Shown: positions 3,926 to 21,645 of the stretch, piece by piece
Numbering within the stretch: the first letter of the stretch is position 1
How the letters are laid out: the number at the start of each line of letters is the position of its first letter
NCBI GenBank assembly: GCA_965263035.1
Contig: OZ253580.1
Span: 6,016,001 to 6,080,000, forward strand
DNA: 64,000 nt
From: Acidobacteriota bacterium
GTDB taxonomy: Bacteria; Acidobacteriota; UBA6911; RPQK01; JAJDTT01
Direction: 5' to 3'
The notes under the pieces: model-generated
The model's database searches: none
What the model was told of the DNA's origin: nothing
Seen by the model: only the letters and a program-made list of their open reading frames with translations
Position numbers and translations under genes: made by a program

Positions 3926-4907
3926 TCAGACGGAGATCCGCTCGACGATGTTGCGGGTGACGCGTCGCCGGCACCGGTCGTAGATCTGCGTGGTGCGGGG
4001 ATGGGAGTGCCCGGCCAGGTACCGGACGTCCTCAAACGGCACGTTCTGGCTCAGCAGATCCGTGACCGCCAGGACCCGGAAGGAGTGGGGCGAGAGGATC
4101 TCCGGCAGCCCGGCCGCCTGGAGCCGGCGCTTGAGCATCCGCCTGACGGCGTGAGGCGAGAAGGGCCGATCGGTAAGGGTGCCGTGCCGGCTCTCTCCGG
4201 CCCGAAACATCACCGACCCCTTGGGCGCGGCGCCGAGCCCGGCCCCCTCGATGTAGGCCGTGAGCCATCGGTCCAGGTCATGGCGCACGGGGATCTCCCG
4301 GGCTTTGCCGCCCTTCTCGGCAAACAGGAGCGAGCGCAGGCTCCTAGTCCCGCAGATCCTGGATCCGGAGCCGGGTGATGGCCCCGACGTGGGCGCCAGT
4401 GTAGATCAGGGTCCCCAAGACCGCCCGGTCCCGAAGTCCGAATACATGGCTGGTATCGATCGAGGCGAGGAGTTGCCGGGCTTGGCGAACCGTCATCTCG
4501 GGGATCTTTCCGTCTCCGAACGGATTCCGGACGCCGCGAACCGACTGAAAGGGATTGAGTACCGCCGCGTGGCGGCGGACGAGGGCGTCGAAGAAGTGGC
4601 GCAATCCGGCCAGAGCCTGGTTCTTGTTGGCGGCCTCGCCGGGGAGCTGCTCGATGAAGCGGCCGGCGGTTCCTGGCGTGACTTGCCGCAGCTCGAGTCC
4701 CTGGGCCTCGCACCAGGAGAGGAACTCGCTGACGGCCCGGGCGTAGGAGCGCCGGGTGTGGGGGCTGGAGATCTGCGCCGAGAAGAACTCATCGGCCGCA
4801 AAGCAGGCGGCTTTCCCGGCGCGCACGAGGATGGCCGGGAAGGCCGTTTGGAGGTGGTTTTTCGCTGGCGTGGCCGACGTTTTCAGGGCGATCTTCTGAT
4901 GACTCAT
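3926..4907 (-). pseudogene. XerC/XerD-like tyrosine recombinase, frameshifted
   Basis: N-part 4907-4344 (GLRDRAVLGTLIYTGAHVGA); C-part EKGGKAREIPVRH...SPHSFR...LAGHSHPRTTQIYD in another frame; stop/frameshift near 4344. Confidence 0.9.
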
Positions 4908-4911
4908 TCTC

Positions 4912-4939
4912 GGGTACGATAATATGCTTTGTCGTACCC
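4912..4939. other. dif-like recombination site A (11-6-11 inverted repeat)
   Basis: GGGTACGATAA tatgct TTGTCGTACCC, 4 bp upstream of the recombinase start codon. Confidence 0.7.
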
Positions 4940-5010
4940 TGCACCACGCCCCTGACTCCCCATTCTCTGCGACGGCCGTGCGCTATTCCATCCCCTTCTG
5001 TCCCCACCCG

Positions 5011-5039
5011 GTGAGCCCATTCCGACGAGAAAATCACCT
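5011..5039 (+). promoter_or_regulatory. Conserved promoter-like motif, copy A
   Basis: GTGAGC-N17-TCACCT. Confidence 0.65.
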
Positions 5040-5139
5040 TTCATTGTGTCGTGAAAGTGAAATCATTTCGGGAAACCAATCGGGGGAACCGGGGACCCGC
5101 TCCGTGGGTCCCCGGTTCCCCAAGACAGGAGGAAGACCT

Positions 5140-5688
5140 ATGAAGCGATGGAGTCAAAATGAAGGAACCCGTCGGCATCTGTGGAACCGGGCCCTCATCC
5201 TGCCGCTGTGCGCTTGCCTGGTGCTCGCCGGCAGTGTGACGCATCCCGTCTGGTCCGCCGGAGCCTCCGAGGACGAGCGGCTGCACGAACTTCTCAGAGG
5301 CAAGAAGATCCATGCGGCCTTCAAGAACTACGGCTTCGTGTCGGGCCAGGTCAAGGAAGTCCAAGAGAACGCCCTGAGAGTCGATGTCACTAAGAGTTTC
5401 AATCTCAGTTTGATTTCGACTGGGGTTCAGGACATCCCCATCGAGCGGATTTCCACCGTGCGCTGGACGGCAGGGTCCAAGAACAGAAAGATTTTCTTCA
5501 CGGTGGGCTTTGCAATCGGAATTGTTGGGGGGCTTTGGCTTACGGGAAGTGGAGCTAATGTACTCGCATTTATGGGAACTACAGCGGGGGGAGGACTACT
5601 TGGGTACTTTGTGGGTTCGAGAATGGACCATAGGAGCATCGACCTTGGGACCCACCGACCGCCGACGGGGCGCCCGCCCAAGAAATAA
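5140..5688 (+). CDS. Secreted small beta-domain (Sm-like?) protein with C-terminal glycine-zipper helices
   Basis: AGGAGG RBS; signal peptide; C-terminal GFAIGIVGG...GGGLLGYFVGSRMD. Confidence 0.75.
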   Translation: MKRWSQNEGTRRHLWNRALILPLCACLVLAGSVTHPVWSAGASEDERLHELLRGKKIHAAFKNYGFVSGQVKEVQENALRVDVTKSFNLSLISTGVQDIPIERISTVRWTAGSKNRKIFFTVGFAIGIVGGLWLTGSGANVLAFMGTTAGGGLLGYFVGSRMDHRSIDLGTHRPPTGRPPKK

Positions 5689-6193
5689 GAGTGCGAGCCA
5701 TAAGCGGCCCCCTGAGCTGGCCGACAACTGGATCACGAGCTGGATGGCCGTCCCCACTGATTCGGCGAGCCAAGTGAAATCGCCCTACCGTACATGAACG
5801 GAAACCACAGCGATGACCTGTCGAGAACAATTCAGAGGGGAACCCGAGTGACCACTGGGCGCGGGCCGGCCGCCGGTGCAGATCGTTTAGGCCGGCAACT
5901 CAACAAGTCGTTTCTTGTCCTGAGTTTTCTCCTGCAGTATTCTTGGTGTCCTGAAGGCGAGCCCGCCAAGTGTAGCAGCACCCGGCAGGCTCTAAGCCAA
6001 CTCGACCTATGCCGGAGGACGAGCCAGCCTGGTAGATATTCTATTCCACCATCCTCCCTGGTTTCATTCCGGCATAGGTCCTCTCATCGGAGTCAGGATC
6101 TTCCGACTGCGGAGAATGAAGGCCTCCAACCCGCGCCAGGTCCACTCCTAATTGGGCACACATGGATCCCGACCCATTCACGAGGGAGAAACC

Positions 6194-8569
6194 ATGACCA
6201 CCTTTGAACACACCGAAGACAACATCGTGTTTCGGTGCCGCTCCGGCTCGTGGGGAGGCCGATTTTTCCGAACGAGCATATTGCAAGACAAACTCGTCTC
6301 TTTCGTTTTGTCCTCGGCAGTGGGGTGCCTCACGGTCGTCTTGCTGCTGGCGGCGGCGCCCCCTTTGCAAGCCTGCGACGATGGTTGGACGGTGCCGGAT
6401 CCCGAGAACAATTCCGGTCTGGTGGAGGACTGTAGAGTCCTTCTGGCTATACGCGATGACTTGGCCGGGACCGGCTTCTTGAACTGGGAGTTTGGTTTGC
6501 CCATCGACCGCTGGGGCGGTATCCGCGTCTCGGCATCTCCCAGCCGCGTGCGGCAGTTGGTCCTGTTTGGAGACGACCTGTCAGGGTCGATCCCGTCGGG
6601 ACTGGGTCGGCTGTCCCAACTGCAGACGTTAAGGCTCCTTAGCCGGCAACTGATGGGGCCGATCCCACCGGAATTGGGACAATTGTCGCATCTGGAGGAG
6701 TTGAGCCTCTCTGGCGACCGGCTGGGAACGATTCCTGCCGAGTTGGGGCAGCTCTCCCGCCTTCGTCGGTTGGGACTCGTCGGCAATCAGCTGACGGGTC
6801 CGATCCCCGCCGAGTTGGGTCAACTGTCCAATCTCCGTCGGTTGCATCTTCAGAACAACGAATTGACAGGCCCAATTCCGGCCGAACTGGGCCAACTATC
6901 TCAGTTGGAGGCGATGTCGCTTGACCACAACAAACTGACGGGTCCGATCCCCGTCGAGTTGGGACAGCTGTCCCAGTTGGGCGAAGGGTTGCATCTCCAG
7001 AACAATCAACTGACGGGGCAGATTCCGGGCGAACTGGGTCGACTGTCTCAACTTTGGGGGGAATTGGATCTACGGAACAACCAGCTAGCGGGTCCGATTC
7101 CCGCCGAGTTGGGTCAACTGTCCCAGCTGACACGCTTGTACCTTCAAGACAACCAGCTGACCGGATCGATCCCGCCGGAACTGGGACAAATGTCCCGGTT
7201 GCTGGAGTTGTATCTCCACAACAACAAACTGACGGGTCCGATTCCCGCCGAACTGGGAAAACTCTCCCGGCTGTGGCGCCTGCACCTGCAGAACAACGAG
7301 TTGACAGGATCGGTTCCGGCCGAACTAGGGCAACTCTCCGAGTTGCAGGAGTTCGGTTTCCGGGGCAATCGGCTGACGGGATCGGTTCCCACCGAGTTGA
7401 GTCATTTGCCCGATGTGTACGTATTGAACTTGCACGCGCGCCGGACCACCCCAGAACAGATTAAGGTCACCTGGGACGATCCGGGTGACCCCAGCACCGA
7501 TTACGAGTACCGGCTCGTGCTGCGGGATGAGAACCTGAACTATACGGTGACAGACTGGACCGAAATTGAAGATCCAGAGGCGACACTGGGTGGGGGCGAA
7601 GGGGTCACCATCGAATGGACTTTGACCAACCTGCCAGCCGAACTCGATGTCGTCTCGGTCCGTTTGAGGGCGAAGAACGAGAACGGTCCAAGTCCGCCAG
7701 CATCGGCTCCAATAGAACCCTTCCAGGTTTCCGAGGATGTGGATCTACCCTACTGCCGTTCGCTGTGGCCGGGACGGGCGCGTTGCACCACCACTACAGT
7801 CCTGCCTCACGTCTTCATGGGCCCTCTCGGCGAGGATGAGGCCCGAGCCGAAATCCTCATTACCAACCGCAGCGGGTTTGTAGCTTGCGACCTGGCGCTG
7901 CTCTTTCACCAGGGAACTTCCGAAGCTCCGCAGGTATTGTTCGACAACGAGCCGCTCGAGGGGAACCTGTTCGAGACCAACCTTTCCAGGGGAGCTGCAC
8001 GGATCCTGACCTTGACGTCGGATTCGGAAGAGCTGGTGGTCGGGGCGGTCTCGGTCTTCGTCCGCGTTCCCTGCTCGATCACCTCGTTCCAGGTTCGGGG
8101 ACGTTACCTCGTAGAAGATCGGATGAGCGGAGATATCCAAGAGCTCTTTTCCGTTTCCGGCCAGTCTCCGCGGGAGTGGCTCGGAAATGGGGATTGTCAA
8201 GTCTTGACCGGAGCCTTCGGCCCGGGACGCAATCTCGGTTTTGCCTCGGTGACGACCGAACCGAATCAGGGTGCTCCGGCGGGGACCCAACTCCATTTCC
8301 AGGCCTTCGATCTGGAGGGGAACCCCATGGACGACCCACCCAGCATGGAGATCACCGGCGCACAGACCGCCTCCTTTCCCTGGAGCTTCCAGGAACCCAC
8401 CATCCTCAAGATGTGCCTGGAGGTTCCGGAGCCGGACAGTCAATTCCAGCTCTCGACCATCGCCATCGGCGTCGTCCAGAAGGGGAACAACGTGCAATGG
8501 AGTGATGAACCCGCCGTCGAAGTCACGCCAGCAGGTCAACCCTCGGGCTGGCCGGACACCCGGCCCTGA
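6194..8569 (+). CDS. Secreted plant-type leucine-rich repeat protein with FN3-like and C-terminal beta domains
   Basis: About a dozen LxxLxLxxNxLTGPIPxELGxL repeats; hydrophobic N-terminal segment; IKVTWDDPG...YEYR. Confidence 0.9.
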   Translation: MTTFEHTEDNIVFRCRSGSWGGRFFRTSILQDKLVSFVLSSAVGCLTVVLLLAAAPPLQACDDGWTVPDPENNSGLVEDCRVLLAIRDDLAGTGFLNWEFGLPIDRWGGIRVSASPSRVRQLVLFGDDLSGSIPSGLGRLSQLQTLRLLSRQLMGPIPPELGQLSHLEELSLSGDRLGTIPAELGQLSRLRRLGLVGNQLTGPIPAELGQLSNLRRLHLQNNELTGPIPAELGQLSQLEAMSLDHNKLTGPIPVELGQLSQLGEGLHLQNNQLTGQIPGELGRLSQLWGELDLRNNQLAGPIPAELGQLSQLTRLYLQDNQLTGSIPPELGQMSRLLELYLHNNKLTGPIPAELGKLSRLWRLHLQNNELTGSVPAELGQLSELQEFGFRGNRLTGSVPTELSHLPDVYVLNLHARRTTPEQIKVTWDDPGDPSTDYEYRLVLRDENLNYTVTDWTEIEDPEATLGGGEGVTIEWTLTNLPAELDVVSVRLRAKNENGPSPPASAPIEPFQVSEDVDLPYCRSLWPGRARCTTTTVLPHVFMGPLGEDEARAEILITNRSGFVACDLALLFHQGTSEAPQVLFDNEPLEGNLFETNLSRGAARILTLTSDSEELVVGAVSVFVRVPCSITSFQVRGRYLVEDRMSGDIQELFSVSGQSPREWLGNGDCQVLTGAFGPGRNLGFASVTTEPNQGAPAGTQLHFQAFDLEGNPMDDPPSMEITGAQTASFPWSFQEPTILKMCLEVPEPDSQFQLSTIAIGVVQKGNNVQWSDEPAVEVTPAGQPSGWPDTRP

Positions 8570-8586
8570 GAGCCACCCCCGACCTG

Positions 8587-8615
8587 GTGAGCCCATTCCA
8601 GCGGAAAAATCACAT
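8587..8615 (+). promoter_or_regulatory. Conserved promoter-like motif, copy B
   Basis: GTGAGC-N17-TCACAT, 44 nt before ATG 8660. Confidence 0.7.
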
Positions 8616-8659
8616 TTACTGCTGCTAGGACGATCCAAACCATGAAGGGGGTACACGCC

Positions 8660-9115
8660 ATGAGAGGTCTGACGATTGAGAGTCAAGGATGGCTCAGGAT
8701 AACCACAGCGATGGGAGTGATCTCCTTGCTGCTAGCGCCAGTCACGACCGACCTATTCTGTGCTCCCCGGACAGAGAAGTTCGGGTCGGCGATTTATCGA
8801 AAAATGGTGTGGAACGAACTTCCCGCCTTTCTCGAAGGAGAAAAGAAGGTCACCATCGTGCTCGCCGAGGGGGGCGCAGTCCGCGGCGACGTGGCCGGGG
8901 TGCCGGACAATGGCATCCATCTCAGTCGCGTTTCAATGACTACCAACGGGTGGCTCTACCCGACGGGTTCGGACGCTTTGATCCCCAGATCCTCGGTCAA
9001 AGAAATACGTGTGGAGAAACGCGGTGGGCTTAATCGCGTCGGGGGTGCTGTTCTGGGCTACCGGATGGGCAAACGCGCGGATGTCGAGACCACCATCATC
9101 ATGATCGTGGACTGA
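8660..9115 (+). CDS. Secreted small beta-domain/glycine-zipper family protein, internally shortened
   Basis: VTIVLAEGGAVR...SVKEIRVEK...GGAVLGYRMGKRADVETTII matches the protein at 63310-63891. Confidence 0.8.
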   Translation: MRGLTIESQGWLRITTAMGVISLLLAPVTTDLFCAPRTEKFGSAIYRKMVWNELPAFLEGEKKVTIVLAEGGAVRGDVAGVPDNGIHLSRVSMTTNGWLYPTGSDALIPRSSVKEIRVEKRGGLNRVGGAVLGYRMGKRADVETTIIMIVD

Positions 9116-9199
9116 TTCCCCAAGGTATCGAGAATAGCTTGGAAGACGACCGCTCGCCGGAACCCCTCAGCAAGCTGAAAATGGCGATCCTCTGGGTAA

Positions 9200-9225
9200 C
9201 GTCTGTTAACTGAAATTAACGGACG
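9200..9225. other. Type-2 palindromic recombination-like site (left copy)
   Basis: CGTCTGTTAA ctgaaa TTAACGGACG. Confidence 0.6.
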
Positions 9226-9464
9226 ATCTCTGGAAAAAGGGAGGATCCCGGGGCGTGCAAATCAGTCGCAAATCTCCCGGAAACACGGTTTAAGAGAATA
9301 CCACCAAGACCCTTCATGAGGGCTCGGGGTACGAAAATTGCACTTTATTGGACTCTGATACCATCCCACAGAGTCGCCGCCGCAGTTGAGATGATCCAGC
9401 ACGAGGCGGATTCTGTCCTGGCCCATGACTCCGGGAAGGGATAAAGTGGGGAGGGAGAGAACGC

Positions 9465-9749
9465 ATGTCCAACGAACAACTCCTGACCATCGTCGCTTCC
9501 ATTGCGAGCGCCACCATCGCTCTCGGTGGTCTCATCCTGGCCCAATCACGCACGATCCGTTCTGAGCTTCGAGAAGCGGCTCGGGAACGCGCTGCTCTCC
9601 GGGACCGCATGGATACCCAGATCGGAGATCTCCGGGACCGCATGGATACTCAGATCGGAGATCTCCGGGACCGCATGGGGCGGATCGAGGGAACGCTCGA
9701 CGTGCTCCGGGAGTTCTTCGTGGGGTCCGGCCGCGGCACCGCCGCTTGA
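9465..9749 (+). CDS. Small membrane-anchored coiled-coil protein with 11-aa tandem repeat
   Basis: N-terminal TM segment; LRDRMDTQIGD repeats; GGAG RBS. Confidence 0.75.
   Translation: MSNEQLLTIVASIASATIALGGLILAQSRTIRSELREAARERAALRDRMDTQIGDLRDRMDTQIGDLRDRMGRIEGTLDVLREFFVGSGRGTAA
9597..9678 (+). repeat. 33-bp tandem repeat (about 2.5 copies)
   Basis: CTCCGGGACCGCATGGATAC(C/T)CAGATCGGAGAT x2 plus a partial copy. Confidence 0.9.
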
Positions 9750-9938
9750 CCCGTCCTTGCACCTTGCACAACACGCGTGTTCATGTCGACCACGCGTTAT
9801 AGACCTTCTGCAATTCTTCGATCCAACACTTATCCTCATCGATCGTATCGCGTCCCCGCGACCGGGCTAGGAAATTGATCTACTGCGAAAGCGGTAGAAT
9901 CGGTCCATATTCCCCCGATTTCTCGGCGAATAGAACAA

Positions 9939-10301
9939 CTATGCACCTCCAAATCGAGAAAATCTGGCCTCGATTCCCCACTTTCTCGCTACGATCATTT
10001 CTACCGCGCAGACTCCTAGCGTGAAGAAACCGGGTCCGGGTATCCGGTCACCCTTGTGCACGACCACGGCGGTGAGCATCCCTCGTCCTGCTTCATCCTC
10101 TTCAGTCGAGATATCCCCGAGCATCCGCGCCAAGCGGGGGTCATGGGGTTCGAGAATGCAACTCGTAATGCTGTGCACGAGGTCTGAATAAGCAATCGTG
10201 TCCCGCTGGCGGGACACGGCAATCATGGCTTTGCGGGCTTCTTCCTTGGCGGCGTTCCAGGCGATTTGAGTAAATCCGTGATTGAAGGTTTCACGCTTCA
10301 T
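9939..10301 (-). CDS. Hypothetical protein coupled to the methyltransferase gene
   Basis: ATGA overlap with the MTase stop; TIAYSDL...GMLTAVVV...PGPGFF. Confidence 0.6.
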   Translation of the reverse strand: MKRETFNHGFTQIAWNAAKEEARKAMIAVSRQRDTIAYSDLVHSITSCILEPHDPRLARMLGDISTEEDEAGRGMLTAVVVHKGDRIPGPGFFTLGVCAVEMIVARKWGIEARFSRFGGA

Positions 10302-11928
10302 GTGTTTCTCGCCCGTGTTCCACGCTCCAGACGGTAGAGGTTAAGTTCCAGCAACTCGCAGCGGACGTCGTCGTCAGTGATGTCAGCACGCCATCCATAG
10401 GCATCCGCAACCGCAGAGTCGAGCGTTGCGTGGGCGTCGGCGAGCCACTGTGGCCGGGCGTTGTAGAGATTCGTCAGCGTGCGCTTCTTGAGTTCCTTCG
10501 CCGCTGTTTCGTTGCGAGGAACGGGACGCTTCGGATAACCGGGAACCGGCTCGTCCACCCATTCGACCCATTCCGATGGGTTTAGCCAGCGGTCGCGACG
10601 CTCGACTAGTTTCTGCGCCGCTTCCGCAATGGTGACGGCGTGCGGATCGTCCGCATAGTCGGCGGAGGGAATGTCCGGAGATAGCCCCTCCGGGAAGGGG
10701 AAGGGCTCGAAAGTCGTGGTCGGGGTGTAGCGCGGATCATTGCCCTTGCCGACCGACGTCCCAAGCCGAAGAGACCAGATCTCGTGGAACCGGCTATGCA
10801 GGATGCCGAAGGTTGTGTCATCGTCGCGCGCGATGATGATCAATTGGTGATCGGGACAGATACGTGTGTCAAGCCACGAGAACACGCGATGCTTCGCGAC
10901 GGTTGGCGTAACGATGCAGCGCGAGCGCCCGGCGAGCACGGCCCACATGCCCTGTCTCGGCTCCACGTGGCGCCACCAGTACTCACGATACGTTTTCCGC
11001 CGATTCCGCTGGCGCATCGGGTAGACACGTTCCTGCACTCGTCGGAACGGCTCTTCGTATAGCGCCGCATCACCTTCCGGCATCGTCCACCCGAAGTCGA
11101 CGATCCACTTCCCCGCCGGCCGCTGGGTCACGTCCCTCCCGTTCACCCACGGCTTCAGGACATCGGCGTTCGTGCGGCCGTTCGGGTTCGCTGGCAGACG
11201 GAGCCACTCACGAGCCTGATCACCCGCAATGTCGAAGGGACCACCCTTCGTGTCGCCCATGAACGCGACGTTAGCATTCTCCGCAAGACGGCCGGCACTC
11301 GTCAGATCGACGCCAGCACCACCGCGGCGCGCTGTCAGGTCCGCATAGACCTCGTCGACAGCCTGGCCATCGAGCCAAATTCCAGCCAGGGATTCGTCGC
11401 CGGCACGCGAGAAGCAAACCGGTGACACCCGCACGGCCGCTCCGTCGACGACCCATGGCTCGTCGCTCCACGCCTCGAAGATCGACCGATTGTGCGTCGC
11501 GGTCGTTAGCATACGGCGGTTCGCTCCACCCCGGATGGAGTTGGTTGCAACAAGCCCGACCCGCTTCGCCTTGCCGGATGCAATCTGCTGGCCCGCCTTC
11601 TCGAACCAGTAGCAGACCAAGTCGGCTTCCGCCGGTACACGGCCAGCGTAGGTCGCGAACATCCGCGACACGTAGCCCTCGCCCAAGTGCGTAATCAGGA
11701 GCTTGCCGCCCAGAAACGGCGGGTTGCCGATGATGACATCGGCATCAGGCCAGTCTGGCTCGGTTCCGTCCGGCGCAAGGATCGCGTCTCGGCACTCGAT
11801 CGTGTCAAGCGGCTTCAGGATCGGGTCACGCGCCTCCGCGAAACCATTGCGCCGCATCCACTGGATCTCGCCGATCCAGACCGACACCCGCGCAAGCTCC
11901 GCCGCGTAGGGGTTGATTTCAAGCCCCT
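10298..11928 (-). pseudogene. 5'-truncated MmeI/type IIL-like adenine methyltransferase-specificity protein
   Basis: GLEINPYAAELAR, IIGNPPFLG, SRFHEIW...PRYTPTTTFEPFPFP; the nuclease and motif I region is missing. Confidence 0.85.
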
Positions 11929-12604: not shown

Positions 12605-12647
12605 TTACCCCTGACGGGATCATCCCAACCCGGAGGAGGTCGATGCC

Positions 12648-13704: not shown

Positions 13705-13773
13705 AGACTGCTCACACTTGATTCAGACTCTGCGCCGTCCGTGCGCTTTCCCGTCCGCTTCTGTCCCAATCCG

Positions 13774-13802
13774 GTGAGCTCCTGCCGGTGGAAAAATCAC
13801 AT
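13774..13802 (+). promoter_or_regulatory. Conserved promoter-like motif, copy D
   Basis: GTGAGC-N17-TCACAT, preceded by sequence homologous to module A. Confidence 0.65.
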
Positions 13803-13835
13803 CTGTTTGTACCGTGTCGGACGAAGAGTTCGGAG

Positions 13836-13922
13836 GAACCCTTGAAGCGAATCGCGGGCAAACCGGTGCGGCTGCGTTTAGTGATGAAGGACGCCGATCT
13901 CTTTTCGTTGCGGTTCCGGTGA
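13836..13922 (+). repeat. Second copy of the hydrolase 3'-end fragment
   Basis: Encodes EPLKRIAGKPVRLRLVMKDADLFSLRF; homologous to 12119-12205. Confidence 0.8.
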
Positions 13923-14339
13923 AGTCGGTGGCGCCAGCCCGATCGCCCTATTCGGTGTCACAGGCGCCAGATGCGCAGTTGAATCCGAGAACGGCGATCC
14001 TGAATGGCCTACCAGGCGCGGCCACCGAAACTGCACCAAGCTTGGCGCACTAGTCCGAAGTTTCAGAGGTAAAGGCAAGTAACTCTCTCATTTGGAACGC
14101 CTTATATATTTTCCTCCCATAGTCTGTCTCGCTCCACCAGGGCGTCACTCCCAACTTTTGGAATGCCCGTCGCTGCAATTCGGTGGGCTGCGTCTTGAGC
14201 ACAAGGGTGTCCTCACGATCCTTTATCTTTGGCGTATTCTGAGCCAGCGTGCCGAGATCCTGCAGTGGCGTGCGGAAGCTGTGGACGGGGAGGTCGTCCG
14301 ATCATTCGACCTTCGTTTGGAGGACCGGAGAGATCCGGG

Positions 14340-17300
14340 CTACGAGACTTCCATACCTTCTTCGCCCTCCCGGATGCTCAAGTTGCCGTAGCGATGGTAA
14401 TCGACACTGATGCTTTGCTCCCTCAAATACCAGAGCAACTCCACCCGGCCCTGGATCAGGACGGGGGCTCGCGCCAAGTAAACCCCGGACGCGGCCGCCG
14501 CCCGGAAAACGATCTCCGGCACCCGCTCCGGCGCCGAAAAGCGGACGCGGTCGGTCTCGGATTCGCGGACCCGGCTCGCCAGCTCGTCGTCGGTTTCCTC
14601 GAGAAATTCGACACCCTCGTTCCACGATGCGGTCAGCTCCTGCAGCCAGTCGGTGGCCGGAGACCACCAGCCCCGGGGGCAACTCAACGTGGCTCGGCAG
14701 CCAACGGCCTTGGCCGCACAGACGCGCGCAAAGATCTCGAACAGCGAATCAAGGGGATCCAGGCGGATGTGGAGCCGGCGGACGGGCAGATAGCGCCGCA
14801 GGTTGTCCTGGCCCACCAGACGGAAGTGGTCATGGGTACGGCCGAATTCCTCTTGACTGTTGGCGCAGTAGCTCTCCAGGGCTACCGCGACCCGAAGCAG
14901 GTCGTCCCCGTCCGCGGCGACTCCGGGCGGACTCGGCTGTTGCAGGCGCCAACGGAGGTCGGCGAGATCGGGATCGGCGACTTCGAGGGAGCCGGCGCCA
15001 ACTTCACCGTCTCGGAAATCCATAAGCTGGGCCACGTAGTTGGGTCCTCCCGCCTTGATTCCGGGGCCGAAGGCGGACTTACCCATGCCACCAAAGGGTT
15101 GGCGGAGCACGATGGCCCCGGTGGTCCCCCGATTGACGTAGAGGTTGCCCGCCTCGACGCGGTCGCACCAGTAAGATTGTTCGCGATCGTCCAGGCTCTC
15201 GAGGCCGGAGGTCAGGCCATACCCGGTCTGACGGATGAGGTCCAGGGCCTGGTCCAGGTTCTTCACCTCCATCACCCCCAGCACGGGACCGAAGAGCTCG
15301 GTCAGGTGGGTGAAACTCCCCGGCCGGACATCCCACTTGATCCCTGGTGAGTAGAGACATGGATTGTCTTCCAGCCGTCGGGGCATCACAGCCCAGGACT
15401 CGCCCGGCTCCAGTTCCTTGAGGCCGGTTTCCAGGACACCCGAGGGAGCGCGAATCAGGGGACCCATACTGGTGTGGAGGTCCCAGGCCGAGCCCACCTC
15501 CAGACTCCGCACCGCGTCGCAGAGCGTCTCTTTGAACCTCGAATCCCGGTAGACCTCCTCCTCCACAAGGAGCAGGGACATAGCCGAACACTTCTGTCCG
15601 CTGTGACTGAAGGCGGAGTGAACCACGTGGCTGATGGCCAACTCCCGGTCTCCAAGAGCGGTCAAGGTCGTAGCGTTCTTCCCCCCCGTCTCAGCCAGCA
15701 GATTCATATCCGGCTTGGCCCGCAGCATCCACCGGGCGGTCTCGGTACCGCCGGTGAGGATGACGGCGTCCACCTCCGGGTGGGAGACCAGGCAGGATCC
15801 GGCAATCTCGTCGGAGCAGGAGACCATCTGCAGAGTCCGTCGGGAAACCCCGGCCCTCCAGAAGCAACGGCAAAGCTCGTGAGCCACCAGCACCGTGTCG
15901 GGGGCGGGCTTGAGGATGACCGTGTTCCCGGCCGCCAGTGCGGCGGCGATTCCGCCTCCCGGTATGGCGATGGGAAAGTTCCAGGGAGCAACGACGACCA
16001 CGACACCCTTGGGCTTGACCTGCAGACCTGGAAGGTCGTGGAAGTCGCGGGCCGCCAAGTCGTAGAAAACGACGAAATCCACCACCTCGCTGACCTCCGG
16101 GTCCGACTCGGCCAGGGTCTTGCCGCCGTCCGCCAGGGCGGCGCCCATGAGGTCCCCCCGGCCACGGCGCAATTCCCGCGCCACCGACTCCAGCACTTGG
16201 GAGCGCTCTTCCACCGTCCTCCTGCGCCAGCCGTCGATATCGTTTCGAGCGCAGGTCACTGCCCGCTCGATGTCCTCCCGGTTGGCCTGCCGATATCGGC
16301 CGACGACCAGGCCCGGCCGGGAGGGATCCCGGCAGTCTCGCAGCTCCCGATCCTGAAAGATCTCCTCCCCGTCCACCACCAGGGGAACTTCCACCTTGTT
16401 GTCGTCGTGTCGAGGTTTCCAGCGTTCGATGATCGCCTGGGCCCACTCGCGGTTGGCAGGAAGTGAGAAATCGGTATCCGGTTCGTTGACAAATCGGCTC
16501 CACGAACTCGGGGGTGGCGACGCACCAGTCTCGGCCAGGCGGTTCTGAACGCGTCGAGGCATCTCCGAAACTTCTTCGCGGCGACGGGAAGATTCGAGGA
16601 ACCCCGCTTCCAGTCGTTTCCACTCCGGGCTGCCGGGGACCAGCTTGAAGGCGTACCTGAGAAAATTGTCGGTTCCCGTGTTCTCGTCCAGACGGCGAAA
16701 GAGGTATCCGACGGCGTTGATGAAGTTCTCTTTCCTGGTCGCCGGCGCATAGAGAAGGAGGTCTTGCACCAGCTCGGACAGGGCACGGCGCTGGGCATTG
16801 GCCATCCCTTCCAGCATCTCGAACTGCACCCGGTCCAGGACGCCGGCCTCCGCAGCCAACAGCAGGGCGTACGAGACGTCGAAGAGGTTGTGTGAAGCCA
16901 CCCCCAGCCGCACGGCGGCAATATTCTCCGGAGCCAGAGCTTCGTGCAGCATGCGCTTGTAGTTGGCGTCGGTCTCAAGCTTTGACTCGTACGGCGCCTG
17001 CTCCCAGCCCCGCAGCGACGCCTCCACACGTTCCATCTCCAGGTTGGCGCCCTTCACCAGCCGGATCGTTACCGGCGCTCCTCCGCTCTGCATCCGTTCC
17101 CTGGCCCAGGCGTTGATTCTCTTCTGGGCCAGGTAGGAGTCGGGGAGGTAGGCTTGAAGAGCGATCCCCCCGCCGGCCTGTCGCAAGCCCTTGCGGTCGA
17201 GGGTCCGCAGAAAGACCTCCGTAGTCACCGCCAGGTCGCGATACTCCTCCATGTCGAGGTACACGAACTTGGACACCACGCTGCCATCCCTGCGTCGAAA

Positions 17301-18005
17301 GCGCCCTCTGGCCGCAGCCCGATACAGCAGCTCCAGCCGGTCGCAAAGCACGGAGACGGCGTGCTCGAAGGCCAGAGACGAGATCTGCGAGTAGATGGTG
17401 GAGATCTTGACCGAGATGACCTCAATCTCCGGGATCTGCAGCGCACTCAGGTACAACTCCAAACGCCGCTGGGCCTCGGCTTCTCCCAGGAGGGCCTCTC
17501 CCAGGAAGTTGACGTTCATCCGCACCCCGCCGGACCGGCGAGCCTCCAGGTGCCGGACTAGCAGGTCCTCCTCGGCGGGGAGGATGACGTTTGCGGTTTC
17601 TTCCCGCATCCTCTCCCGGACCAGCGGCGCCGCCACCTCCGGGAGGTAGCTGCCGAAGGAGTGAAACCCCTTGAGCAGCGTTCGGTCCAGACCGCTGAAG
17701 AAGCGAGGGATTCCCTGGATGTCCAGGATGTGCAGGATCTGGTCGACGGCGCGGTGCGGGTTGCTGGATCGGAAGGCCTGGTCGGTGAGCTGGGTGACGG
17801 TCGCTTTGTCGTGCGGACTCTGCACCATCCGCTCCAGTTCGGCCTGCTGCTTTTCTTCTTCGGGGGTTTGAAGCGTCGCCGCGTTTTCCTGAAGACACCG
17901 TGCCAGGAAGACGGCTTTCTGCGCCCGCTCGGAGTAGGGTGACCCGCAGTCCGGCCCAAACCATCCGAGAAGCTCGTGCAAGGACTTCTTCACGTGGGGA
18001 TCCAT
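14340..18005 (-). CDS. putA: Bifunctional proline dehydrogenase / P5C dehydrogenase
   Basis: LDMEEYRD, RLVKGAN, ASHN (PRODH); PWNFP, ETGGKN, GQKCSA, ELFGP (ALDH). Confidence 0.95.
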   Translation of the reverse strand: MDPHVKKSLHELLGWFGPDCGSPYSERAQKAVFLARCLQENAATLQTPEEEKQQAELERMVQSPHDKATVTQLTDQAFRSSNPHRAVDQILHILDIQGIPRFFSGLDRTLLKGFHSFGSYLPEVAAPLVRERMREETANVILPAEEDLLVRHLEARRSGGVRMNVNFLGEALLGEAEAQRRLELYLSALQIPEIEVISVKISTIYSQISSLAFEHAVSVLCDRLELLYRAAARGRFRRRDGSVVSKFVYLDMEEYRDLAVTTEVFLRTLDRKGLRQAGGGIALQAYLPDSYLAQKRINAWARERMQSGGAPVTIRLVKGANLEMERVEASLRGWEQAPYESKLETDANYKRMLHEALAPENIAAVRLGVASHNLFDVSYALLLAAEAGVLDRVQFEMLEGMANAQRRALSELVQDLLLYAPATRKENFINAVGYLFRRLDENTGTDNFLRYAFKLVPGSPEWKRLEAGFLESSRRREEVSEMPRRVQNRLAETGASPPPSSWSRFVNEPDTDFSLPANREWAQAIIERWKPRHDDNKVEVPLVVDGEEIFQDRELRDCRDPSRPGLVVGRYRQANREDIERAVTCARNDIDGWRRRTVEERSQVLESVARELRRGRGDLMGAALADGGKTLAESDPEVSEVVDFVVFYDLAARDFHDLPGLQVKPKGVVVVVAPWNFPIAIPGGGIAAALAAGNTVILKPAPDTVLVAHELCRCFWRAGVSRRTLQMVSCSDEIAGSCLVSHPEVDAVILTGGTETARWMLRAKPDMNLLAETGGKNATTLTALGDRELAISHVVHSAFSHSGQKCSAMSLLLVEEEVYRDSRFKETLCDAVRSLEVGSAWDLHTSMGPLIRAPSGVLETGLKELEPGESWAVMPRRLEDNPCLYSPGIKWDVRPGSFTHLTELFGPVLGVMEVKNLDQALDLIRQTGYGLTSGLESLDDREQSYWCDRVEAGNLYVNRGTTGAIVLRQPFGGMGKSAFGPGIKAGGPNYVAQLMDFRDGEVGAGSLEVADPDLADLRWRLQQPSPPGVAADGDDLLRVAVALESYCANSQEEFGRTHDHFRLVGQDNLRRYLPVRRLHIRLDPLDSLFEIFARVCAAKAVGCRATLSCPRGWWSPATDWLQELTASWNEGVEFLEETDDELASRVRESETDRVRFSAPERVPEIVFRAAAASGVYLARAPVLIQGRVELLWYLREQSISVDYHRYGNLSIREGEEGMEVS

Positions 18006-18405
18006 CGGAATATAAGATCTTGGACCAGGAGCCTCTTTGGTGGCGCCCCCTCCACAGGATCAGCGGCCCGCATCGTCAGTTTCTTTCGCATTCCCTTCTC
18101 TAACAACCCGCAGTCGGTTGGCTCGATTGCTCGAGGCGGTTCCTTCCAACCGTTTCTACCACCGGCCCGCATTTCTCATCGGGGCCTGCACTCTTGAGAA
18201 GAGTGTAGGGATGGCGCAGAGATTCTTTGTAAGCGCCTGCACGCGACCGCAAAGCGTAGCCGGGTCCCCGTTTGAGCGCGACCGCAAAGCGGAGCACCGG
18301 ACTGTCCCCTTCTCTTCCTAAAGCATTCTACTGGACCCTGCCCCTTCCCCCTGCCCCGTCTTCAGGCGCTGGCTACGCCTCTCCGTCCTTTCTTTTTTCG
18401 ACCCG

Positions 18406-18434
18406 GTGAGCCCCTTCCGGCGAAAAAATCACAT
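18406..18434 (+). promoter_or_regulatory. Conserved promoter-like motif, copy E
   Basis: GTGAGC-N17-TCACAT, 26 nt before ATG 18461. Confidence 0.7.
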
Positions 18435-18460
18435 CTGTCTATGGTGAGCTTGGAGGAGCT

Positions 18461-19222
18461 ATGAGCAATATTTCCCACCCCCCCGGAAAGCGATTCAGGA
18501 AAATCTCGACAATCGGTCAGGCACCCTCGCCGCGGGCGACTCCCTGGCGTCCGTACGTTTTCGTCCTTGCGGCAACATTGCAACTCTGCAGTTGGGAGCC
18601 GCTTTGTGCGCAGCAGCGTGATCCTGCGGTAGAGATCTACGGACTAACAGGAGCTTACTATTTTGGGAATCGTTCGAACGTATTGAAAGGCGGGGAATGG
18701 AACCTACAGCTCGGGGTCGGCGGTCTGTTTCCTCTGGGATCGAAGTGGGCGGTGATGATCGATGGAGTCACGAGCCATCTGGAGGTCAATGAGGGGCCAC
18801 ATGGCCCATATGATGGCCATCCATTCTCAGAATTCTACAGAGTGAATCCCAGGATTCAGAACAATGATGTTACGACGCAAAGACTGATTTCCATTCTGCC
18901 ATCCATCGTCAGGCTGTGGAGAAGGGACCGACTCTCGATCTACATCGGCCTCGGTCTTGGGTTTGAGCAACAGCGTCAACTGATAAGGTATCAACCGGCT
19001 CTTCAACAGGAGAATCCTGATGGAAGCCGCATCCTTGTTCGCGCCGAAGAATTTAGGGAGTCGAGGGATGTCGTATCCGTCATGCCCCTAAACTTTCGCG
19101 CGGGTATCCTGATGAGTCTTGCTCCATGTGTTGTCGTGCGAGCGGGATACTCGCAAATTGTTGCTTACGTCGATACGGCTGCCTCCAGATCTCTCGAAGT
19201 GGGGATCGGATATCGTTTCTAG
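18461..19222 (+). CDS. Putative outer-membrane beta-barrel protein
   Basis: Signal peptide; alternating beta strands; C-terminal SLEVGIGYRF. Confidence 0.7.
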   Translation: MSNISHPPGKRFRKISTIGQAPSPRATPWRPYVFVLAATLQLCSWEPLCAQQRDPAVEIYGLTGAYYFGNRSNVLKGGEWNLQLGVGGLFPLGSKWAVMIDGVTSHLEVNEGPHGPYDGHPFSEFYRVNPRIQNNDVTTQRLISILPSIVRLWRRDRLSIYIGLGLGFEQQRQLIRYQPALQQENPDGSRILVRAEEFRESRDVVSVMPLNFRAGILMSLAPCVVVRAGYSQIVAYVDTAASRSLEVGIGYRF

Positions 19223-19591
19223 GGGATGGGAAGGAGCCGACCAAGAGGGGAGATCCAGAGCAGGCTCCGGCGACATGGCGGATGGCGTTGAAATTGGGCA
19301 CCCACCGAACACATAGGGCGCCCTTCAACAGTGTCATCACCGGTGGAAACCGGTTTTTCCGTCGAGAATGTAGAGCTACGGGCGAATCTCCCATCCACCG
19401 ACCAAAAGGTTTTCTACGGCACGGTTGGTCGAAGCCAGGACGAACCGCCGGACTCATCCCAAAAATCTTCCACGGCGCAGGCCACCAGCCTGGATTCCTT
19501 GGAGCGGGGGGGACGCCATCCAGGAGACCCGGACACCGGCCAATCACCGGTGACGTGGGTAGAACCTGAATCGCGCCCCATATTCAGAAGC

Positions 19592-19876
19592 CTACCAGCG
19601 GCCTCCACCGCCGCCGCCGCCGGACCGGTTCTCACGCGGACGTGCTTCGTTCACGGTCAGGGTCCTGCCGTCCAACTGAGTCCCGTTCAAGGCACTGATG
19701 GCCTTCTGGCCGTCCGCCTCGTCCATCTCGACGAAACCGAAGCCGCGCGACTGGCCGGTCATTCGATCCGTGATCACTCGAGCCGTTTCCACAGGACCGT
19801 ACTCGGAGAAGGTCTCCTCCAACCGGTCATCCGTGATTGCGTAGGGCAGGCCCCCTACATAGATGTTCTTCTTCAT
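19592..19876 (-). CDS. RRM RNA-binding protein
   Basis: IYVGGL (RNP2), RGFGFVEM (RNP1), Gly-rich tail. Confidence 0.95.
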   Translation of the reverse strand: MKKNIYVGGLPYAITDDRLEETFSEYGPVETARVITDRMTGQSRGFGFVEMDEADGQKAISALNGTQLDGRTLTVNEARPRENRSGGGGGGGRW

Positions 19877-20370
19877 TTTCTCCTCCTAATGTTGTAAGAA
19901 ATGGAATTTCTACCCTGAGACGCCAAGTGCAAACGGAGCAGGCCCCGATCCTGTGTAGTTGTACGATTCGATCGGGGATTCCTTGGGAGTCTTTCGCAGG
20001 GAAGAAACTAGCTTGGGCTCTCAACACCTGTCTTCGGTGTTACCTGTCGAACCCTCTGCTGAATTAACCGCCGCGAGCGTAGCCCTTTTTTCCATCGTTG
20101 TCAAAAGAACTTTGTCGTTAGTACGTGAAGTCTCCGGTCCATGAAGTGGGAGGTTTGAAGGTTTCCCGTTTTCGTGGACGGTTGGGTGGTACGGTTTCAA
20201 TCGGTGTTTTTTGTAATCCCCCTTCTATCGCTCAATGGCCATCGACGATGTCAGGGTTGTGGCCACTGACAGAGCGTTCTTTCTTCAGTGGGGGGGGACT
20301 GATGGAGACGTCGGCAGAAGGGCTCAGGTTGTGGGAAATCTCTGGTTTCCCACAACGGGATACCGTATTC

Positions 20371-20470
20371 AGACTCCTCCAAGAGGGATCAGGGCACGAC
20401 AGAAGCTCTTTATTGGACCCTGACCCGCGTCCCTGACCCCCAATTCCCCAGCCTTTTCCAGTGCTGGCTG
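20371..20470 (+). repeat. Degenerate module copy F (dif-like site region)
   Basis: AGACTCCTCCAAGAGGGA...GGGCACGACAG aagctct TTATTGGACCC TG...CCCTGACCCCC; homologous to copies A, E and G. Confidence 0.55.
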
Positions 20471-20523
20471 GACAACGAAGCCGGGACGTTGCGGACCGTC
20501 CGGACGCTTCCAGCCCAAGTCGG

Positions 20524-21393
20524 CTACTGAAAGGATTCATCGCACTCGGCGATGGTGTCAGGATCGGTAGCGACCTGATCGGCCCAATCGCGTCCCTCGA
20601 ACCAATACCGGCGGTGCCGTTCGAGCCAGCCATCGGCTTGGCGAACCACAATCCAGCCATTGAAGAAATTCAAGGCATCGAGGTCACCTTTCCGCACGGC
20701 CATCGCCAGCACGTCCGAGGCAAACGGCTCGTCGAAGGGCAGGTGCAGGGTCTGCGGGTTGGCTTCAACCCAGGTGGTCCGCTTCACCGCGACCGCTGCC
20801 GCAGCATGGGCCTCACCGGTGACGAGGGCCTCGAGGACCGCGTTGTCGGTATCAAAGTGAAGGAGCATGGCATCAGGAAAAACATTTTCGATAGCAGAGA
20901 TTGACGAGGATCCCCGCCGGGTCGCAATCGTGACACTGGAACTGTTGAAATCTGCCAGCGTTTCCAAGTCGGCGGTCTGCTCTGTATTCGCCACCAGGTA
21001 GACACCGGCAACATTGTATGGTGACGTGAAATTGACCTCGAGGTTGCGTCGCGGAAGGATCGTCATGCCACTGATAATCACGTCAAACTCCTCAGCGATC
21101 AGGGAGGGGATGATATAGCTCCAGTTCGTCCGCACGAATTCAACCTCCACCCCCATGTCCTCGGCCACTTTGGTCGCGACATCGATCTCAAAGCCGATCA
21201 GTTCGCCGTCCGCATTGCAGGCGGACCAGGGCTCGAACAGGCCCAGACCGACTCTCAGCGTCCCACGGTCCCGGGCCTCCTCAATGACACTGTCAAATGA
21301 CCACCAAAGGGAAATCTGGGCCATCACCGGAGAGTTGACACCGCCGATCAGGGCAGCAACGACCAGGCCACACACGATGTGCTTTCTTTGCAT
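20524..21393 (-). CDS. Amino-acid ABC transporter substrate-binding protein (family 3)
   Basis: GELIGFEIDVA, IIPSLIAEEFDVIISGMTILPRR, FTSPY. Confidence 0.9.
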   Translation of the reverse strand: MQRKHIVCGLVVAALIGGVNSPVMAQISLWWSFDSVIEEARDRGTLRVGLGLFEPWSACNADGELIGFEIDVATKVAEDMGVEVEFVRTNWSYIIPSLIAEEFDVIISGMTILPRRNLEVNFTSPYNVAGVYLVANTEQTADLETLADFNSSSVTIATRRGSSSISAIENVFPDAMLLHFDTDNAVLEALVTGEAHAAAAVAVKRTTWVEANPQTLHLPFDEPFASDVLAMAVRKGDLDALNFFNGWIVVRQADGWLERHRRYWFEGRDWADQVATDPDTIAECDESFQ

Positions 21394-21507
21394 CAGACAC
21401 CTCCGTCGAAGTATGGATTCCCTCCAGGAGCGGGGGCCCTCCCCTTCTCTCGCGAGCGCGGATCAGTCCCAAGGTCCCCGGAAACACGGGCCAGAAGAAG
21501 ATGACCA

Positions 21508-21645
21508 GACCCCTCCAGGAGGGAACACCGTACGATAAGAGCACTTTATTTTACCCTGTTCCCTCCCTCTGACTCCCCCGTCTTCTACGGCGGCCGCGGT
21601 CCCGCGCCATCCCCTTCTTTCCCATTTCGGTGATTCCATTCGGGT
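21508..21645 (+). repeat. Degenerate full module copy G
   Basis: CCGTACGATAA gagcact TTATTTTACCC TG...CTGACTCCCC...CCATCCCCTTCT...CGGTGATTCCATT; collinear with 4912-5021. Confidence 0.65.

Follow-up and report, generated by a model that had tools for sequence, protein, structure and literature searches.

An Xer-like recombinase gene with an adjoining palindromic site in Acidobacteriota and its possible part in the exchange of secreted-protein genes

Genes and features at the locus

Analysed here is a stretch of 64,000 nucleotides (nt), hereafter the window, from the chromosome of an Acidobacteriota bacterium (assembly GCA_965263035.1, contig OZ253580.1, positions 6,016,001 to 6,080,000). It carries a gene for an Xer-like simple tyrosine recombinase and, at the start of that gene, a short 11-6-11 palindrome that we call IR-A, copies of which recur between co-oriented genes for predicted secreted and surface proteins. 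Two further elements recur in the same surroundings, a second palindrome (IR-B) and a promoter-like GTGAGC..TCAC motif (P1). A first-pass annotation of the window had read the whole as a candidate integron-like or dif-module-like cassette system. The source genome (G000; the window is G000:C1:6016001-6080000) is a single contig of 6.198 Mb with 62% G+C. Our comparison set held 8 genomes of the genus and 6 of its sister genus, and the closest genome compared, G007, has a PutA that is 93% identical.

The recombinase gene is located at 3926-4907 on the minus strand, as delimited by three-frame translation and Pfam (Phage_int_SAM_1, 2.5e-7; Phage_integrase, 5.3e-14). The translation showed an in-frame TAG at 4344-4346 with an adjoining frameshift, and the motif TGARVGA of the intact paralog reads TGAHVGA here, which places a His at the position aligned to the active-site Arg of XerD. 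Judged by the stop codon, the frameshift and the His in place of the first catalytic Arg, the copy of the window is a dead pseudogene, a state that the first-pass annotation had overlooked. Contigs of three other runs have two extra bases behind 4342; with these the frameshift would vanish and the TAG would stay. According to tblastn, G000 has seven full-length copies, including the broken one of the window, and at least five fragments (12 recombinase matches in the chromosome), and the full-length paralogs are 60-77% identical to the window copy. The family occurs in 7 of the 8 genomes of the genus and in all 6 of the sister genus; the matches, many of them fragments, number 0-12 in a genome.

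Concerning the class of the enzyme, the intact paralog is a protein of 327 aa with SAM_1 and Phage_integrase domains in Pfam (an example of an intact copy lies at G000 3683184-3684164). Its best NCBIfam models are XerD (114.5 bits, cut-off 329.6) and XerC (111.5 bits, cut-off 335.15), with XerA at 90.6 bits (cut-off 220) and XerS at 39.8 bits (cut-off 267). The integron integrase model TIGR02249 gave 56.9 bits (cut-off 265) and NF011946 23.1 bits (cut-off 435), and the integron-integrase models match the C-terminal 75 residues only. XerD (1a0p) is also the best solved relative (E = 1.9e-15), and the six positions aligned to its active site are R, K, H, R, H and Y (with H-x-x-R), residues that we take to have the catalytic roles of their XerD counterparts. 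Separate genes of G000 pass the equivalogs of XerD (382 bits, cut-off 329.6) and XerC (353 bits, cut-off 335). By these scores and this alignment the enzyme is a simple tyrosine recombinase with CB and CAT domains, outside the equivalogs tested, and neither XerC/D nor an integron integrase. The class (CB and CAT, no arm-binding domain) is that of section 7 of PMC8138268.

Linkage of IR-A to the recombinase

The IR-A of the window recombinase lies at 4912-4939 on the plus strand and reads GGGTACGATAA / TATGCT / TTGTCGTACCC; its arms at 4912-4922 and 4929-4939 are 11 nt long, 6 nt apart and 91% complementary, and it is matched with E = 2.1e-14 by R1, our model of IR-A plus linker. Four nt separate it from the gene, whose ATG is the CAT at 4905-4907. 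It is followed at 4940-5009 (plus strand) by a C-rich linker of the 'alpha' type (CCCTGACTCCCCATTCTCTGCGACGG...), which is kept after IR-A in 23 copies of the genome. A lone IR-A at 12479-12508 (plus strand, R1 E = 1.9e-14) is a perfect 12-6-12 palindrome with the spacer TATACT, its 12-nt arms (12479-12490 and 12497-12508, at a 6-nt spacing) being 100% complementary. Between these two sites the arms co-vary, GGGTAC..GTACCC in one and GAATAC..GTATTC in the other. The inverted repeat 4 bp from the recombinase start, the full second copy near 12480, the covariation and the Xer/dif-type 11-6-11 architecture had all been noticed in the first-pass annotation, and all of them hold for IR-A.

Copies of IR-A in G000 number from 23 (nhmmer) to 26 (R1) and are spread from 0.16 to 6.18 Mb. 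R1 has 3-9 matches in six congeners, with 9 in G007, and none in G008 or in the sister genus, the sites of which differ in sequence from IR-A. R1 and the recombinase co-occur in 7 of the 8 genomes of the genus, the eighth (G008) being without both. A tie between the site and the recombinase family had been set beforehand as a test of the cassette proposal, and it was found in 8 of the 9 paralogs as well as in homologs of other phyla. In these 8 copies of G000 IR-A stands 4-7 nt from the ATG and is followed by a conserved linker start; the ninth (G000 163953), a fragment, is set apart from IR-A by a 150-bp repeat element. The homology common to the paralog loci extends from the stop codon (3923) to about 4978 and thus comprises the gene, IR-A and half of the linker; 3' of the stop, no conserved sequence was found in 8 paralogs, and therefore the gene is not an insertion flanked by two sites. 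IR-A is, in our judgement, quite likely to be the recombinase's own site. It stands so close to the ATG that it probably takes in promoter and leader sequence of the recombinase gene.

An 11-6-11 site that adjoins its gene would also be seen if the recombinase and the IR-A at 4912 formed a single-recombinase Xer/dif pair (of the XerS/difSL or XerH/difH type) serving chromosome dimer resolution at the terminus, and indeed about 50 kb separate the window, whose own cumulative skew peaks at 4-8 kb, from the antipode of dnaA. The terminus itself is poorly defined: dnaA at 2.872 Mb marks the minimum of the cumulative GC skew of G000, and in place of a sharp maximum the skew has a plateau over about 5.54-6.02 Mb (maximum at about 5.54 Mb in a finer scan). 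One chromosome with 23-26 sites and 12 recombinase matches, a pseudogene in the window, an XerS score far under its cut-off and canonical XerD and XerC genes elsewhere do not fit such a pair, and copy number and canonical XerC/D already contradict it, which leaves it very improbable. As a separate observation, the flat skew stretch of about 5.55-6.02 Mb has a recombinase plus IR-A unit at both of its ends, in opposite orientation (5547286, minus; 6020912, plus), and a past inversion between these two units is possible.

Homologs in other phyla and on plasmids

A scan with one genome per species yielded 105 relatives of the recombinase, for which 80 loci were kept (L-numbers denote loci), with the start placeable in 58. 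They come from Acidobacteriota, Planctomycetota, Verrucomicrobiota, Chloroflexota, Gemmatimonadota, Cyanobacteria, Rhodothermia-type relatives of Salinibacter and others. The close homologs L009-L012 keep the site at their start, and homologs down to 36-41% identity in other phyla keep an ATAA-N6-TTAT palindrome at the start of the gene; ACCATAA-CGTCCT-TTATGGT or GCATAA-CGTCCT-TTATGC is found there in homologs of about 40% identity. Under a strict criterion (TAA-N6-TTA with at least 5 of 7 outer pairs, at most 200 nt from the start) the palindrome was present at 20 of the 58 homolog loci versus 3 of 1100 control windows. When the remaining 38 loci were inspected by eye, about 15 showed half-sites or variant sites, the latter with a spacer of 7 or 10 nt or with one changed base. 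A separate palindrome scan around all 25 tyrosine recombinase genes of G000 gave 0 matches and missed even the known sites, its criterion being too strict.

The 20 distinct sites present compensatory arm changes, with GC in 9 and CG in 8 at one position and four pair types elsewhere; as the sites were picked for being palindromic the paired fraction is biased, and it is the variety of pair types that is informative. The spacer is conserved (TATACT, CATACT, CGTACT, CGTCCT) and mostly has the same direction relative to the gene, with at least four reversed. Two distant loci carry a site that is cut, at the border of spacer and right arm in L034 and inside the spacer in L033. Tyrosine recombinases exchange strands at the spacer/arm border or within the spacer. 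No neighbour gene was conserved across the 80 homolog loci.

With tblastn, relatives of the recombinase were found at 168 places on 157 plasmid records, nearly always one per record, and on only 3 phage records. The closest plasmid relatives (52-56% identity) reside on planctomycete plasmids. Five plasmid records were examined for gene neighbours. In Komagataeibacter pGX3 the recombinase lies between a toxin-antitoxin pair and partition plus RepA genes, in the Frigoriglobus plasmid it is near the replication initiator, and a palindromic site is visible at two of the five plasmid loci inspected (Frigoriglobus, Singulisphaera). These observations point to a plasmid-type module of recombinase plus site as the putative source of the chromosomal unit. 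Among the titles and abstract openings returned by a full-text literature search, there was no description of this recombinase and site family or of such arrays.

Lone modules and gene arrays

As a rule, a lone IR-A site of G000 follows a conserved block L of about 115 nt, which has 23 copies and extends between IR-B and IR-A. IR-B (CCGTTAA-CTGAAA-TTAACGG) opens the block; it has TAA/TTA inner ends and the same build as IR-A. About 29 places match it when up to 4 mismatches are allowed, a few of these probably by chance. No recombinase was found tied to IR-B. At two places outside the window (G000 2107988 and 155493) IR-B stands about 70 nt from CRISPR-like repeat arrays. The series IR-B, block L and IR-A gave no consensus fold in 13 copies on either strand (alifold, -1.9 kcal/mol), and at gathering score no Rfam family was matched in the modules. 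Within G000, three palindrome types occur at the IR-A position (TACGATAA.., CCAACAA.. and TTCAAAA..), each of them self-complementary. One insertion sequence (IS) is shared by loci L008 and L117 of G006 and G007; it lies at the recombinase start in G006, where it destroys IR-A, and inside block L in G007, and was judged by eye from its N-terminal translation to encode an IS5-type transposase.

In the window, all on the plus strand, the first such module (9203-9355) consists of IR-B (9203-9222), block L (E = 7.8e-31) and a degenerate IR-A-like site at about 9326-9355. A perfect 11-6-11 IR-B follows at 13677-13704, where synteny with G007 has its left limit. At 18322-18432 a remnant of IR-A (spacer and right arm, 18322-18345), which adjoins an IS-type end, precedes a linker and P1 (18405-18432) and heads the gene at 18461-19222. 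A degenerate IR-A with linker lies at 20392-20470 (nhmmer E = 0.063; R1 E = 0.0026), and the module at 21439-21647 (nhmmer E = 0.0025; R1 E = 0.0026) combines a partial block L (21439-21525), a degenerate IR-A with arms extended to 21 nt (21518-21566), a linker and a P1-like start. The motif of the latter, at 21620, is interrupted by a 164-nt insertion (21648-21811, plus strand) that is absent at the G007 ortholog. The composite of motif and 164-nt insert is also found behind at least seven other IR-A sites of G000; either the P1-like motif is a target of the element or the two were copied together. The first-pass annotation had listed the right arm plus motif at 18328-18434 and the degenerate copies near 20392 and 21528, and these were recovered along with the others by direct-repeat families (D3, D7, D9, D10 and D12, including 21607 and 20376/21512), nhmmer and R1; the two degenerate copies are weak, detectable and kept in G007 at 91%. 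IR-B, block L, the IR-A-like site at 9326-9355 (D12) and the 164-nt insertion had gone unnoticed.

The fullest array, at G000 6146627-6193853, starts with a recombinase fragment and IR-A and continues with about 12 large open reading frames (ORFs), all on the plus strand. Most of these ORFs have IR-B and block L 27-56 nt behind them, in many cases joined by IR-A and a linker ahead of the next ORF. The same layout is established behind the recombinase in the window (4912, 9203, 12479, 13677, 20392, 21528) and in L001 (G000 3684168 onwards). By our own reading, five of eight recombinase units have co-oriented modules downstream, and the earlier claim that the modules head secreted-protein genes is borne out to the extent that recombinase plus site units head co-oriented arrays of signal-peptide genes. 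The window and the array at 6.146-6.194 Mb carry their copies of IR-A, IR-B and block L on the plus strand only, and an inversion switch of the shufflon or vpma type was rejected on these grounds. Ten of the 23 copies of block L lie at most 120 nt after the stop of a co-oriented ORF (at least 150 aa), versus 492 of 5000 random positions. As for distance to the recombinase, 12 of 28 lone module loci in G000 are within 20 kb of a full-length copy, and 43% of lone modules are within 50 kb of a recombinase versus a random mean of 11% and a maximum of 36% in 2000 trials, the loci being clustered and non-independent.

The P1 motif and the small signal-peptide proteins

P1 was searched as GGTGAGC-N13-AAAATCAC with up to 3 mismatches. 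The window has 6 matches versus 1.26 expected, a number reached by 0 of 100 shuffles; five are on the plus strand (5010, 8586, 12575, 13773, 18405) and one on the minus strand (63937-63964), so that the repetition of the motif and the co-orientation of all copies except the last stand as first described. Genome-wide, 21 copies occur in G000 at up to 1 mismatch. P1 is present in all 8 genomes of the genus (1-22 copies), among them G008, where neither recombinase nor IR-A was found, and in none of the 6 of the sister genus, and a reversed control pattern never matched. Among 30 copies that we judged real, our own reading placed IR-A upstream of 6-7, IR-B upstream of 6 and neither upstream of 17; 29 of the 30 have an ORF of at least 60 aa within 300 nt downstream. 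Most of these ORFs belong to a family of 145-215 aa with a hydrophobic N-terminal segment (signal peptides were assigned by eye) and a Gly-rich C-terminal segment. The small proteins matched no Pfam or NCBIfam family. In the Atlas they lie among acidobacterial hypothetical proteins, and Gly-zipper_Omp is found on 46% of the members of one neighbouring cluster, which serves as a lead only.

Behind the recombinase-linked site, P1 (5010-5040, plus) precedes the gene of a small protein at 5140-5688 (plus) with a hydrophobic, signal-like N-terminus and a Gly-rich C-terminus, and then a leucine-rich-repeat (LRR) protein at 6152-8569 (plus; LRR_1 4.6e-35, LRR_8 7.8e-23), the 72-nt periodic repeats of which constitute repeat family D1. 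The segment 5011-8569, containing both genes, is duplicated at G000 6167033-6170518 with 88-89% identity; the duplicate starts at P1 and is preceded by IR-B instead of IR-A. A P1 copy without IR-A (8586-8613, plus) heads a small signal-peptide protein of the paralog family (8642-9115, plus), the G007 ortholog of which (85%) is located behind a recombinase fragment and IR-A. Behind the lone IR-A, linker and P1 (12575-12602) occupy 12509-12604 (plus) in front of a small lipoprotein-like protein (12648-13241, plus), homologs of which lie directly behind recombinase plus IR-A units in G007 and G001. The copy at 13773-13800 (plus) stands behind IR-B and is followed only by a 3' gene fragment (13830-13922), with no intact gene. 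The gene at 18461-19222 (plus) encodes a 253-aa protein with a signal-like N-terminus and no family, and the minus-strand copy at 63937-63964 heads a further small-protein paralog.

P1 did not match the sigma-70 consensus, and no sigma-70-type promoter was detected in 4850-5200 or 12400-12700. On its position and conservation P1 is a genus-specific, promoter-like 5' region of the small-protein family, separate from IR-A. The proposal that site and promoter form one module did not stand: most P1 copies are without IR-A, G008 has P1 alone, and duplication boundaries fall at P1.

Comparison with G007 and other congeners

Synteny with G007 covers the window from 13669 to at least 43982 and starts exactly at IR-B. 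In place of 1-13668, the stretch with the recombinase and the two good IR-A sites, G007 has about 5.6 kb of different DNA bounded by the same flanks. Further differences are the replacement of 18322-19489 by an IS in G007, 3.8 kb extra in the window at 25273-29035, and 8.9 kb in G007 where the window has 0.3 kb (33981-34281).

The strongest evidence for exchange at IR-A, as far as sequence comparison goes, is provided by two array heads, G000 6145130-6146657 and G007 1997129-1998634, which are 95% identical and lie at like distance from putA (about 116 and 119 kb). Their alignment is nearly identical through the recombinase fragment and IR-A to ...TTTATCGTAATCTA and unrelated from the next base on, the switch falling exactly at the right arm of IR-A. 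After the switch G000 has a 'beta' linker and a 760-aa ORF, and G007 has the 'alpha' linker, P1 and an ortholog (85-90%) of window 8578-9246, which comprises a small gene and IR-B. Similarly, the best G007 matches of window 12487-13293 and of L001 11104-11764 (86% each) lie behind a recombinase fragment and IR-A, and both segments have other left flanks in G000 than in G007. At G007 1861862 a left flank, IR-A and half linker are common with window 11920-12538, and the segment that follows corresponds to L001 9036-10756 in G000. G001, G002 and G003 were too weakly syntenic to be of use; G002 seemed to be linked to the putA flank, which comparison of the proteins did not bear out.

Such differences might also come about without any site-specific exchange. 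IR-A and IR-B could be operators for dimeric DNA-binding proteins, IR-A being autoregulatory, block L a 3' untranslated region or terminator and P1 a promoter, with arrays built by tandem or segmental duplication and the genomes set apart by homologous recombination, deletions and ISs. The TATAAT within the recombinase-linked IR-A, the genome-wide distribution of P1 and of the small-protein family independently of IR-A, the co-duplication of array ORFs with their flanks (shared C-termini, 40-50 nt to IR-B), the duplication boundaries at P1 and the IS and miniature inverted-repeat transposable element (MITE)-like elements at several breakpoints all agree with a regulatory role. What it leaves unexplained is the co-varying palindrome that stays beside the recombinase across phyla and plasmids, where no such gene family exists, the change from 95% identity to unrelated sequence exactly at the right arm, the half-sites that break at or in the spacer, and a block L devoid of a consensus RNA fold. 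We consider this reading rather unlikely.

IR-B, block L, IR-A and linker could alternatively be mosaic repeats, similar to bacterial interspersed mosaic elements (BIMEs) or MITEs, that spread by themselves into the spaces behind genes, perhaps mobilised in trans by the recombinases, and carry no genes along. The blocks do occur in many combinations (full, partial, or IR-B with P1 only), R1 has 26 matches in G000 versus 9 in G007, one gene has modules on both sides in G000 and none in G007, and many other short repeat families populate the genome. Inspection of the blocks revealed neither terminal inverted repeats nor target duplications around them, and the syntenic region 13669-43982 offers no clean pair of filled and empty sites and has three modules conserved in place, so that self-spreading repeats appear improbable.

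Proposed mechanism and points against it

The reading that we prefer takes IR-A as the core recombination site of the adjoining Xer-like recombinase, composed of two arms of about 11 bp with ATAA/TTAT ends and an asymmetric 6-bp spacer. Gene and site together would be an old, horizontally spread module, single on plasmids and, in two of the five records examined, with the layout of a multimer-resolution system, and it has multiplied and decayed in this acidobacterial genus. Some 15-20 lone IR-A sites belong to modules between the genes of co-oriented arrays that encode secreted or surface proteins, and several such arrays begin with a recombinase plus IR-A unit; P1 often, and not necessarily, stands behind IR-A or IR-B. 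Working in trans, intact paralogs could exchange, excise or re-insert the DNA to the right of the site, and this would explain why orthologous recombinase plus IR-A units have different downstream genes in two congeners. Binding of IR-A by the enzyme, catalysis on it, promoter activity, and the direction and frequency of exchange are what we infer, next to the directly observed anatomy, linkage, covariation, array layout and breakpoint at the site.

Several results weigh against this reading. The recombinase in the window is dead. About 18 of the 58 homolog loci have no site recognisable by eye, and three of the five plasmid records have no replication or partition gene among their annotated neighbours. 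Within G000, the lone sites of 'TTGCACT' and 'GATCAAC' type have 7-nt spacers unlike the recombinase-linked TATACT and would therefore be poor partners for recombinase-linked sites. Array ORFs share C-terminal coding sequence plus 40-50 nt up to IR-B, meaning that flanks were co-duplicated with genes, as expected from duplication. The variable gene order anticipated around the sites was seen in the recombinase-proximal segments, with a switch at the site, and not at the modules at 13677-13800, 20392 and 21528, which are fixed in place between G000 and G007 (91% identity for the latter two). Other boundaries lie at P1 (5011, 8569/8578; L001 4296), IR-B or IS ends and not at IR-A, and in G007 a 92% relative of the array gene at G000 6149546-6151057 stands between unrelated flanks, with modules on neither side. 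The breakpoints could stem from homologous recombination between the 25-30 identical bases of dispersed sites, and many direct repeats of an active site should destabilise the chromosome.

A search for circular junctions had also been suggested as a check. When Logan contigs of four runs, which are short, were aligned to window 2500-22400, no junction of IR-A with IR-A, of excision or of a circle was found; contigs cannot show rare variants, and the missing junctions are thus no evidence against excision. The contig joints that did appear are explained by paralogs, such as the joint of 5993 to 13297, which corresponds to the duplicate at 6167-6171 kb. Taking both sides together, we put the probability that exchange at IR-A caused the differing downstream segments at roughly 55%.

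Likeness to known systems

The layout is integron-like or dif-module-like, and the system is a member of neither family; of the original proposal the layout and the dif-type site are retained. As in integrons, the recombinase reads away from the adjoining site, co-oriented genes with repeated palindromes between them form arrays that start from recombinase plus IR-A (G000 6146627-6193853, the window, L001), and the recombinase-proximal segment differs between relatives. In contrast to integrons, the enzyme lacks integron-integrase identity (TIGR02249, as above), IR-A is by inspection a duplex-type 11-6-11 site of 28-30 bp and not a long folded attC, the segments are large (1.5-7 kb) with promoter-like motifs of their own, and each genome has several recombinase copies. 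A classical integron was rejected because the enzyme is far below the integron-integrase cut-offs.

With Xer/dif the locus shares a simple CB plus CAT enzyme with XerD and XerC as best models, and an 11-6-11 site with ATAA/TTAT inner ends; it differs in its scores far below the equivalog cut-offs, in having many genes and sites that are not confined to the terminus, and in a host that has XerC and XerD of its own. Xer/dif dimer resolution was rejected in the absence of a single terminus site (23-26 sites from 0.16 to 6.18 Mb) and with canonical XerC/D elsewhere. In the known single-recombinase systems difSL adjoins xerS, a proximity comparable to that of IR-A and its gene. The pairs XerS/difSL and XerH/difH are named in section 7 of PMC8138268.

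Likewise, pdif modules of Acinetobacter plasmids and IMEX elements, as outlined in PMC5790767, PMC11705084 and PMC12907356, are gene segments bounded by dif-like sites and moved site-specifically. They depend on host XerCD and have no recombinase of their own, whereas here chromosomal sites stand beside a dedicated recombinase family. A further difference is that pdif sites alternate in orientation and the present ones are co-oriented.

Cre/loxP and ResD/rfsF are plasmid or phage multimer-resolution recombinases with a nearby simple site, and they resemble the present unit in having one gene and one short palindromic site; relatives of the family stand singly on the 157 plasmid records, beside rep or par genes in two of the five examined. 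Here, unlike there, the units are chromosomal, multiplied and partly decayed, lone sites occur, and the spacer and arms measure 6 and 11 bp versus 8 and 13. The vsa and vpma/Xer1 systems of Mycoplasma also place an Xer-like recombinase beside a surface-protein gene family with site-bearing 5' regions; they act by inversion around one promoter between genes of opposite orientation, whereas the genes described here are co-oriented and each has a promoter-like motif. BIME, BOX and Correia-type repeats are, like the blocks of this genome, short intergenic elements in varying order, some promoter-like, and differ in not being tied to a tyrosine recombinase gene with the same palindrome at its start.

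Other repeats and elements

Several further elements were noted in the window. Between the two IR-A sites, a 600-aa ORF at 10298-12100 (minus) encodes an MmeI-type methyltransferase with target recognition and C-terminal domains; the MmeI matches start at profile position 52, and the ORF is therefore probably a truncated type IIL restriction-modification gene. A 150-bp MITE-like repeat at 9871-10020 has more than 200 copies at 95-99% identity in G000 and many in G007, and a 325-bp repeat at 711-1035 and 26945-27244 has about 20 genome copies at 94-96% and is also present in G007. The only Rfam matches in the window are group II intron domains at 44268-44531 (minus; RF02001, 86.4 bits; RF01998, 45.3 bits). 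Repeats with a period of 99 nt (families D4 and D5) occupy a coding region at 31248-32033, and short GC-rich hairpin repeats, GGCGGC-AAGAAA-GCCGCC (D6, D8 and D13), are intergenic at 34121-34259, 44686-44742, 51228-51471 and 63168-63207.

Biological implications

If the recombinase is inactive on IR-A, the locus would amount to an expanded gene family with a conserved arrangement of operators and promoters, which is ordinary. If it does act on IR-A, a gene-reshuffling platform would have been assembled from Xer-type and not from integron parts, which would show that integron-like layouts can arise more than once. In its widest form, which we put forward as a tentative and somewhat doubtful possibility, this would be a second, independently evolved chromosomal gene-cassette platform, in which a plasmid-derived Xer-like recombinase captures, excises and reorders promoter-bearing segments of secreted and surface-protein genes. 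Lone IR-A sites, and perhaps IR-B, would then be cassette boundaries that generate surface variation in uncultured Acidobacteriota, and the unit of gene and site would be a widespread, uncharacterised pair of recombinase and target in at least five phyla. Exchange at IR-A would also explain part of the hypervariability of secreted-protein gene arrays. Moreover, since the site sits at the start of the gene, recombinase/target pairs could be read straight from genomes, and their co-varying 11-bp arms would offer a large natural set for studying and borrowing specificity.

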